Virus record (IMG/VR): IMGVR_UViG_2698536646_000002
DNA: 25,058 nucleotides
Source: a virus
Lineage: Duplodnaviria > Heunggongvirae > Uroviricota > Caudoviricetes
Direction: 5' to 3' (one strand)
Shown here: positions 16,637 to 19,903 of the stretch, in pieces
Numbering within the stretch: the first letter of the stretch is position 1
Layout of the letters: each line of letters starts with the position of its first letter
Notes under the pieces: model-generated
The model's database searches: none
What the model was told of the DNA's origin: nothing
The model's input: only the letters and a program-made list of their open reading frames with translations
Made by a program: the position numbers and the translations under genes

Positions 16637-19600
16637 ATGGGTAAAGGCAGCAGTAAGGGGCATACCCCGCGCGAAGCGAAGGACAACCTGAAGTCCACGC
16701 AGCTGCTGAGTGTGATCGATGCCATCAGCGAAGGGCCGGTTGAAGGTCCGGTGGATGGATTAAAAAGCGTGCTGCTGAACAGTACGCCGGTGCTGGACAG
16801 TGAGGGGAATACCAACATCTCCGGCGTCACGGTGGTGTTCCGGGCAGGTGAGCAGGAGCAGTCACCGCCGGAGGGATTTGAATCCTCCGGCTCCGAGACG
16901 GTGCTGGGTACGGAAGTGAAATATGACACGCCGATCACCCGGACCATCACGTCGGCAAACATTGACCGACTGCGTTTTACCTTCGGTGTACAGGCACTGG
17001 TGGAAACCACCTCAAAGGGAGACAGGAATCCGTCTGAAGTTCGCCTGCTGGTTCAGATACAGCGTAACGGTGGCTGGGTGACGGAAAAAGACATCACCAT
17101 TAAGGGCAAAACCACCTCGCAGTATCTGGCCTCGGTGGTGGTGGATAACCTGCCGCCGCGCCCGTTTAATATCCGGATGCGCAGAATGACGCCGGACAGC
17201 ACCACAGACCAGCTGCAGAACAAAACGCTCTGGTCGTCATACACCGAAATCATCGATGTGAAACAGTGCTACCCGAACACGGCACTGGTCGGCGTACAGG
17301 TGGATTCGGAGCAGTTCGGCAGCCAGCAGGTGAGCCGTAATTATCATCTTCGCGGGCGCATTCTGCAGGTGCCGTCGAACTATAATCCGCAGACGCGGCA
17401 ATACAGCGGTATCTGGGACGGAACGTTAAAACCGGCATACAGCAACAACATGGCCTGGTGTCTGTGGGATATGCTGACCCATCCGCGCTATGGCATGGGG
17501 AAACGTCTTGGTGCGGCAGATGTGGATAAATGGGCGCTGTATGTCATCGGCCAGTACTGTGACCAGTCGGTGCCGGACGGCTTTGGCAGCACGGAGCCGC
17601 GCATCACCTGTAATGCCTGGCTGACCACACAGCGCAAGGCGTGGGATGTGCTCAGTGATTTCTGCTCGGCGATGCGCTGTATGCCGGTATGGAACGGGCA
17701 GACGCTGACGTTCGTGCAGGACCGACAGTCGGATAAGGTGTGGGCCTATAACCGCAGTAATGTGGTGATGCCGGATGATGGCGCGCCGTTCCGCTACAGT
17801 TTCAGCGCCCTGAAAGACCGCCATAATGCCGTTGAGGTGAACTGGATTGACCCGGATAACGGCTGGGAGACGGCGACAGAGCTTGTGGAGGATACGCAGG
17901 CCATTGTCCGTTACGGTCGTAACGTCACGAAGATGGATGCCTTTGGCTGTACCAGCCGGGGGCAGGCACACCGCGCCGGGCTGTGGCTGATTAAAACGGA
18001 ACTGCTGGAGACGCAGACCGTGGATTTCAGCGTGGGTGCTGAAGGGCTTCGTCATGTACCGGGCGATGTCATTGAAATCTGCGATGATGACTATGCCGGT
18101 ATCCGCACCGGCGGGCGCGTGCTGGCGGTGAACAGCCAGACCCGGACGCTGACGCTCGACCGTGAAATCACGCTGCCATCCTCCGGCACCACGCTGATAA
18201 GCCTGGTTGACGGGCAGGGGAATCCGGTCAGCGTGGAGGTCCAGTCCGTCACCGACGGCGTGAAGGTAAAAGTGAGCCGTGTTCCTGACGGTGTTGCTGA
18301 ATACAGCGTGTGGGGGCTGAAGCTGCCGACGCTGCACCAGCGATTGTTCCGCTGCGTGAGTATCCGTGAGAACGACGACGGCACGTATGCCATCACCGCC
18401 GTGCAGCATGTGCCGGAAAAAGAAGCCATCGTGGATAACGGGGCGCACTTTGACGGCGACCAGAGCGGCACGGTGAATGGTGTCACGCCGCCAGCGGTGC
18501 AGCACCTGACTGCCGAAGTCACCGCAGACAGCGGGGAATATCAGGTGCTGGCGCGCTGGGACACGCCGAAGGTGGTGAAGGGCGTGAGCTTCCTGCTCCG
18601 TCTGACCGTAACAGCGGATGACGGCAGTGAGCGGCTGGTCAGCACGGCCCGGACGACGGAAACCACTTACCGCTTCACACAACTGGCGCTGGGGAACTAC
18701 AGGCTGACAGTCCGGGCAGTAAATGCGTGGGGGCAGCAGGGCGATCCGGCGTCGGTATCGTTCCGGATTGCCGCACCGGCAGCGCTGTCGCGGATTGAGC
18801 TGACGCCGGGCTATTTTCAGATAACCGCCACGCCGCATCTTGCGGTTTATGATCCGACGGTACAGTTTGAGTTCTGGTTCTCGGAAAAGCGGATTGCGGA
18901 TATCAGGCAGGTNNNNNNNNNNNNNNNNNNNNNCCTGGCTGAAATCAGGACGTCCATTACGGATGTCAGCAATGAAATCACGCAGACCGTCAATAAGAAA
19001 CTGGAAGACCAGAGTGCGGCAATTCAGCAGATACAGAAGGTTCAGGTTGATACAAATAATAACCTGAACAGCATGTGGGCTGTGAAGCTGCAGCAGATGC
19101 AGGACGGACGCCTTTATATCGCGGGTATTGGTGCCGGTATTGAGAACACCCCTGACGGCATGCAGAGTCAGGTGCTGCTGGCGGCGGACAGGATTGCGAT
19201 GGTTAATCCTGCGAATGGCAACACAAAACCGATGTTTGTTGGTCAGGGCGATCAGATATTCATGAACGACGTGTTCCTGAAACGCCTGACGGCCCCCACC
19301 ATTACCAGCGGTGGAAATCCATCGGCATTTTCCCTGACTCCGGACGGAAAGCTGACCGCTAAAAATGCGGATATCAGTGGCAGTGTGAATGCGAACGCCG
19401 GGACGCTCAACAATGTCACGGTAAATGAAAACTGTACGATTAAGGGCATGCTGGAGGCGACTCAGGTCAGAGGTGACTTCGTTAAAGCTGTATCCAAATC
19501 ATTTCCGAAACAGGCTGGTACGTGGGGTAACACGGAAACACCAAACGGGACGGTTACAGTCACCATAAGCGATGATCATAACTTTGACCGCCAGATTATT

Positions 19601-19903
19601 ATTCCGCCCATTATTTTTAACGGTATAGCGTATGACGATCCGGGGAGCGGAAATAACCCAGGAGGCACGCGATACACGGGTTATGGTTTTGAAGTTCGCA
19701 AAAACGGCGTATTAATCGCATCCAGAGAAACTAAAGGTGCCATTCCCGGTAGTTACAGTGCAGTTATTGATATGCCTAGTGGTGGTGGTAGCGTCACTCT
19801 GGAGTTTAAGATTTTCCAGAAAGGCAATCAGGGGGCAGGCAATATCACCGACTGTACGGTGATTGTGACCAAAAAAGCGGCTTCCGGCATCAGTATTCGT
19901 TGA
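16637..19903 (+). CDS. J: Tip attachment / host specificity protein J (central tail fiber); contains a 21-N assembly gap; distal part diverges from lambda
   Basis: [34 protein letters not shown]... is near-identical to lambda gpJ up to about residue 750 (...[13 protein letters not shown]). After the N-run at 18913-18933 the sequence is diverged, apart from the conserved [22 protein letters not shown] block, and the last roughly 150 aa are unrelated to the lambda receptor-binding end as I recall it. Confidence 0.93.

Follow-up and report, generated by a model that had tools for sequence, protein, structure and literature searches.

A phage 434-type receptor-binding module at the distal end of gene J in a lambda-like prophage

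Gene J in the late region of the prophage

The DNA analysed here, which we call the window, is a 25,058-nucleotide stretch of a tailed virus (Caudoviricetes; IMG/VR record IMGVR_UViG_2698536646_000002), and our subject is its gene J, which encodes the tip attachment or central tail fibre protein. The window is the late region of a lambda-like prophage, colinear with the cos-to-tfa part of lambda (95-98% DNA identity) and corresponding to lambda positions 13-17780 plus homologues of lom, stf, and tfa. J occupies 16637..19903 on the plus strand, with the last base of its TGA stop codon at 19903, and it has the tail-operon placement of a gpJ-family gene, downstream of H-M-L-K-I and upstream of lom, stf, and tfa. 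The isolated temperate coliphages PhiR42_1, PhiR68_2, mEp332, and Kati match 86-95% of the window at 96-97% identity; PhiR42_1 covers 95% of it at 96.3%, and the arrangement therefore exists in real phages.

All gpJ-family Pfam domains were found in J above their cut-offs, namely PF13550 (Phage-tail_3), PF24801 (FNIII-A_GpJ), PF24421 (Ig_J), PF24489 (Ig_J_second), PF09327 (Phage_Tail_Tip), and PF12421 (Ig_GpJ_C), giving an architecture of a hub, an FNIII-A domain, two Ig/FNIII domains, a tail-tip fibre prism, and a C-terminal Ig-like receptor domain. The PF24489 match is cut by a run of 21 Ns at 18913..18933, which was located by scanning for N-runs and carries no strand; sequence resumes at 18934, with the first in-frame codon starting at 18935. 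In the phi458 locus, the flanks of this run correspond to positions 5747 and 6000, and a 1604-nucleotide query across it spans 1835 nucleotides in complete E. coli genomes, so that the interval it replaces amounts to 252 nucleotides, or 84 codons, in relatives. As judged from an alignment of four J proteins (described below), the hidden sequence completes the second FNIII/Ig domain and begins the helical shaft. In the list of open reading frames (ORFs) and its translation, J has 1088 codons, including 8 Xs. Because the N-run stands for approximately 252 nucleotides, the 1088 residues read from the window are too few, and the true length is probably about 1165 residues, as in phi458. The window contains three N-runs, none of which preserves the length of the sequence it replaces, and an exact 89-nucleotide duplicate, and it is therefore a gapped draft assembly.

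Segmental comparison of J with lambda, 434, and phi458

Segment identities were taken from a four-way protein alignment of J from the window, lambda, 434, and phi458, with domains named as in the lambda gpJ structure paper (PMC11101478). The hub and FNIII portion (residues 1-758) was identical to lambda J at 737 of 758 positions (97.2%), which agrees with the first-pass annotation of the window, where J was said to track lambda for about 750 residues; identity was 97.6% to 434 and 97.5% to phi458. The same annotation placed a divergence from lambda after the N-run, with the exception of one conserved block, and the alignment bears this out. The alpha-helical shaft (residues 767-812; 18935..19072, plus strand, as are all J segments) is a variant 20-28 residues longer than the shafts of lambda and 434 and unlike either, with 27% identity to lambda (20 gap positions), 31% to 434, and 100% to phi458. 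The upper beta-prism of the central straight fibre (residues 813-872; 19073..19252; PF09327) is also of the phi458 type, being 58% identical to lambda, 58% to 434, and 100% to phi458. Next comes a conserved junction block ending in GTLNN (residues 873-925; 19253..19411), which is common to all J alleles compared and is 94% identical to lambda, 91% to 434, and 98% to phi458.

The last 163 residues of J (926-1088; 19412..19900) were assigned as a 434-type receptor-binding domain, predicted to bind OmpC, on the basis of their identities, a PF12421 match, and an AlphaFold model. They are identical to J of phage 434 at 154 of 163 positions (94.5%) with no gaps, and hence with the same pattern of insertions and deletions, and are 96.9% identical to phi458 J. 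The C-terminus therefore matches J of a phage of known receptor (434; OL657226, UMO75286.1). Against lambda, identity over this segment was 64 of 152 positions (42%) with 17 gap positions at three sites, and 40% for the domain core from GDFVK onward. Gaps flank lambda residues 1012 and 1107, and one of the differences is a 6-residue insertion, IAYDDP, that lies within a low-confidence loop of the model. In lambda the specificity region comprises residues 960-1132, with loops at about 1012, 1048, 1077, and 1107; the corresponding part of the window's protein is not lambda-like, at 40-42% identity. High C-terminal identity to lambda, which the first-pass annotation had itself named as incompatible with its view, is thus not what we found.

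The annotation's further statement that the final 150 or so residues do not resemble those of lambda stands with respect to the 42% identity and the gaps, but the segment is an alignable homologue rather than an unrelated sequence. The 322 residues after the N-run align to residues 839-1131 of lambda J (BLASTP E=3e-95), and the C-terminus matches PF12421, Ig_GpJ_C, described as 'Tip attachment protein J, C-terminal receptor binding domain' (E=4e-26). The J C-terminus is a different allele from that of lambda and a divergent homologue of it; an unrelated origin is ruled out by the shared Pfam domain and the shared fold. Judged by these alignments, the distal part of J is a known host-range module whose C-terminal Ig-like receptor domain belongs to the allele of phage 434 (h434) and not to that of lambda.

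The fold of the receptor domain was modelled by AlphaFold2 from a multiple sequence alignment of 40 sequences and compared with the PDB by Foldseek, in line with the structure prediction suggested in the first-pass annotation. The 163-residue model is all-beta, with a mean predicted local distance difference test (pLDDT) score of 78 and a predicted template-modelling (pTM) score of 0.72, and its least confident part is the inserted loop (domain residues 77-84). Its best matches were the four solved gpJ fibre tips, with template-modelling (TM) scores of 0.71-0.75: A8 gpJ in the closed state (9wca; TM 0.75, 43% identity) and open with OmpC (9wcb; TM 0.71), and lambda gpJ in the closed state (8xck; TM 0.75, 37% identity) and with LamB (8xcj; TM 0.72). 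Foldseek E values for these four entries ranged from 4e-14 to 3.5e-13, and later matches had TM scores of 0.46 or less. The model thus predicts the gpJ Ig-like beta-sandwich fold of the fibre tip. Because solved complexes exist of lambda gpJ with LamB and of A8 gpJ with OmpC (an OmpC trimer is present in entry 9wcb), a gpJ-type domain can bind either porin, depending on the allele.

Taken as a whole, J is a three-part mosaic of a hub and FNIII portion like those of lambda, 434, and phi458, a shaft and upper prism of the phi458/cdtI type, and a 434-type receptor domain. The divergence of shaft and prism after the N-run is a module separate from the receptor domain. Phage 434 itself has the same type of receptor domain with a lambda-type shaft and prism (about 30% and 58% identical to those of the window), and in Evi, 2B8, and PhiR26_1 the matches that contain this receptor domain begin only at query position 295; because these four phages pair the domain with other shafts, shaft and receptor domain assort independently. 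The closest whole-gene relative is phi458 J (OP434518; 1165 residues; a prophage of avian pathogenic E. coli, APEC), which has the same mosaic throughout, long shaft and 434-type domain included, differs by a few substitutions only, and is complete where the window has Ns. The J proteins of cdtI, Ayreon, ev243, mEp332, PhiR42_1, and Stx2a_WGPS6 group with phi458 as the same mosaic. The junction block is the likely site at which modules are exchanged by recombination.

A gene interrupted by Ns might also be an assembly chimera, in which the N-run joins a 5' part from one lambdoid prophage to a 3' part from another in the same genome. Such an error would fit N-runs whose lengths do not match the replaced sequence (21 Ns for 252 nucleotides and 14 Ns for 272 nucleotides), a third run of 148 Ns followed by an exact 89-nucleotide duplicate of upstream sequence, and the number of matches to this part of J in E. 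coli genomes (median 2, maximum 13), which commonly breaks assemblies. We nevertheless regard a chimera as very unlikely, as phi458 J has the same combination within one gene (97.5% identical upstream of the gap and 98% downstream) and PhiR42_1, PhiR68_2, and mEp332 are colinear with the window over 92-95% of its whole length. Even if J were chimeric, the assignment of its receptor domain would be unchanged.

The post-gap part of J is widespread among phages and in E. coli. Its DNA is present at full length and 94-97% identity in phi458, cdtI, Ayreon, ev243, mEp332, PhiR34_1, PhiR42_1, PhiR68_2, and several Shiga toxin (Stx)-converting phages, and several of the records with matching DNA give K-12 as host. 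A tblastn search with the last 163 residues returned a tight cluster of 74 phage records at 90% protein identity or more; all records outside this cluster were below 60%, with lambda at 38%. Of 5,426 complete E. coli genomes, 2,092 (about 39%) contain receptor-domain DNA that is approximately 90% identical or better, and the 434-type allele is among the commonest J alleles in this species. The variation of the J specificity region across mEp460, cdtI, and Ayreon has already been analysed (PMC6646904), and phage 434 was isolated in the 1950s (record OL657226).

Receptor use and loop variation

Phage 434 uses OmpC, and lambda becomes an OmpC user when its J is exchanged for the 434 tail-fibre gene (PMC3509688); the lambda gpJ structure paper likewise gives OmpC as the 434 receptor and reports that replacement of J by the 434 gene transfers OmpC use to lambda (PMC11101478). 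Based upon these genetics and the 94.5% ungapped identity to the 434 domain, we consider it likely that the porin bound by the window's J domain is OmpC rather than LamB, which supports the first-pass suggestion that the receptor is probably not LamB. It is scarcely credible that the domain is instead a diverged LamB-binding allele that retains the receptor of lambda. The two domains share fold and family, and sequence by itself is not a reliable guide to receptor type, but identity to the lambda domain is only 40-42%, with the 17 gap positions at three sites, including the IAYDDP insertion, whereas the near-identical domain belongs to an OmpC user that confers OmpC use on lambda through J. 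Lambda gpJ (NP_040600; PDB 8XCJ/8XCK) resembles the window's protein in family, domain order, and fold and differs from it in its LamB receptor, its shorter shaft, and its receptor domain.

The A8 gpJ chimera (PDB 9WCA/9WCB), which binds OmpC of E. coli EDL933, offers a second comparison and shows that a gpJ-type domain can bind this porin. A8 is lambda sequence through the junction block; its receptor domain, whose sequence we took from PDB 9wca, has the same fold as the window's, provides the best structural match (TM 0.75), and contains an insertion after an FRG/FNG motif that resembles the one in the window. Among PDB sequences, J matched A8 gpJ713 with E=3e-97 and lambda gpJ with E=2e-88. 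The window's domain is not of the A8 type, a candidate assignment ruled out by identities of 43-45% (43% in the structural alignment, and 44-46% for members of the 434-type cluster by tblastn), and A8 thus represents a separate allele class. A search with the receptor domain of the PDB entity 'A8 gpJ 713' also surfaced the phage 434 genome OL657226, with the same match length as for the window's cluster. The engineered A8 domain is itself a natural allele, 98-99% identical to domains in PhiR30_1 and several Stx1 and Stx2 phages (Stx1_131719 and YYZ-2008 were compared). Because A8 matches a natural allele, at least two classes of J domain with approximately 45% mutual identity, the A8 type and the 434 type, are linked to OmpC.

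Several observations weigh against assigning OmpC to the window's protein by its likeness to 434. First, the differences between the window and 434 from NCTIKGML to the end of J are confined to 7 positions in two stretches, the first at window residues 955, 959, 960, and 970 (lambda 1004-1017) and the second at residues 1059, 1061, and 1066 (lambda about 1099-1104); the window residues concerned are S955, Q959, A960, N970, I1059, Q1061, and G1066. The two stretches adjoin the equivalents of lambda residues 1012 and 1107, and fine specificity may therefore differ from that of 434. Second, A8 is an OmpC binder with only about 43-45% identity to the window's receptor domain, so that sequence type and receptor do not correspond one to one. 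Third, the assembly gap interrupts J, and its two halves may not be contiguous in the window's own genome. Finally, the literature yielded no adsorption or knockout data for this allele or its close relatives except 434: direct receptor data were sought for phi458, cdtI, Ayreon, mEp460, mEp332, Tritos, and the PhiR phages, and none were found in the literature examined. Lambdoid mEp phages are reported to use mostly FhuA and secondarily OmpC (mEp literature).

The first of these points can be developed into an alternative in which the domain is of the 434 type but loop polymorphisms shift its fine specificity, restricting it to certain OmpC alleles or giving it an additional or different porin such as OmpF. 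All 7 core differences from 434 fall within two predicted loop regions. Lambda gains the use of OmpF through four mutations in all, which alter residues 1012 and 1107 and include one or more additional J mutations, and natural J homologues have hot spots of insertion, deletion, and selection at lambda residues 1012, 1048, 1077, and 1107 (PMC6646904); the engineered OmpC binders A8 and 1A2 accept different OmpC alleles (PMC11338833). We compared 28 cluster representatives of the 434-type domain and found recurrent polymorphisms at domain positions 30-45, 75-76, 123-125, and 134-141, in stretches that sit close to, and roughly match, these four hot spots. This pattern is consistent with diversifying selection on the predicted receptor loops. 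The window, on the other hand, has the common allele at most of the polymorphic sites (N45 in 21 of 28 representatives, I134 and Q136 in 20 of 28, and G141 in 20 of 28), near-identical phages including Ayreon and PhiR34_1 (domain 96-97% identical) list K-12 hosts, as does 434, and nothing we found points to a receptor other than OmpC. The closest receptor domains, at 99.4% identity, are those of Evi and 2B8, for which no host is listed. On balance, a shifted specificity of this kind appears unlikely, and OmpC remains the receptor we favour.

If the window's protein works like its homologues in the solved gpJ complexes of lambda and A8, then J would trimerise into a central tail fibre, as lambda gpJ does (PMC11101478), with the hub closing the tail tube and the FNIII domains, helical shaft, beta-prism, and receptor domain forming the fibre. 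Each of the three receptor domains would insert its bottom loops into an outer-membrane porin trimer, and porin binding would spread the receptor domains, twist the prism, flip the shaft, and thereby open the tail tube.

Surroundings of J and significance of the allele

Similarity of the 434 type does not end with J but runs beyond its stop codon through a terminator and lom into the start of stf, and window positions 19072-20450 are 90.6% identical to 434 DNA. Along with the receptor domain, the terminator, the lom type, and the tail gene order are shared with 434. A hairpin followed by a T-run at 19926..19949 on the plus strand (GGCGTC-AGGAAT-GACGCC-TTTTTT) lines up with the terminator that the 434 record places behind J and is probably an intrinsic terminator. 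The lom gene (Ail/Lom outer-membrane protein; 19974..20456, plus strand; positions 1-159 of the 199-position Pfam Ail_Lom profile) is of the 434/phi458 type, encodes a protein 36% identical to lambda Lom, and travels with the J receptor-domain module. DNA alignment with 434 and phi458 revealed an 83-nucleotide deletion at 20444/20445, between CTGGCG direct repeats, which shifts the reading frame and truncates the protein to 160 residues, compared with 199 for the intact gene of 434. Unless this deletion is an assembly error, lom is probably a pseudogene.

Farther downstream, the first-pass annotation had called stf and tfa lambda-like and the structural genes a mosaic. The mosaic is confirmed, and Tfa is indeed 93% identical to its lambda counterpart, but Stf (20549-23638; 1029 residues) is lambda-like only at its ends, with 85% identity to lambda orf-401 over approximately the first 330 residues and 70% to lambda orf-314 over the last 233. 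About 300 residues in the middle (roughly 500-796) have no lambda match, and for this reason Stf, too, may have a receptor specificity other than that of Ur-lambda.

Upstream of J, the other two N-runs affect genes L and A. A run of 14 Ns at 15070-15083 replaces approximately 272 nucleotides of lambda sequence (13682-13952), because of which gene L appears as a truncated ORF of 94 residues. Within gene A (terminase large subunit; ORF 1865-4024), positions 3392-3628 consist of a run of 148 Ns and then the exact 89-nucleotide copy, which lies at 3540-3628 and duplicates 3180-3268; the sequence then picks up at lambda position 2237. Gene A is stretched by these additions to 719 codons, compared with 641 in lambda, and the N-run and duplicate look like a scaffolding or assembly artefact rather than a real insertion.

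The divergent distal end of J is a real finding, correctly interpreted in the first-pass annotation and already known, and it implies no new biology. A more far-reaching reading, in which the loop alleles adapt the domain to some OmpC variants only or provide it with a second porin, and in which the longer shaft may also alter the relay between receptor binding and the opening of the tail, strikes us as unlikely; if it were true, shaft and receptor-domain modules would combine in natural J alleles to give different host ranges. The window illustrates two known points, that J modules are exchanged at a conserved junction block and that variation within an allele is concentrated in the predicted receptor loops. 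Its value is mainly one of annotation: the tail tip is best annotated as being of the 434 type and as a probable binder of OmpC rather than LamB, a label that bears on predictions of host range and superinfection and of how genes carried by the prophage are transferred.

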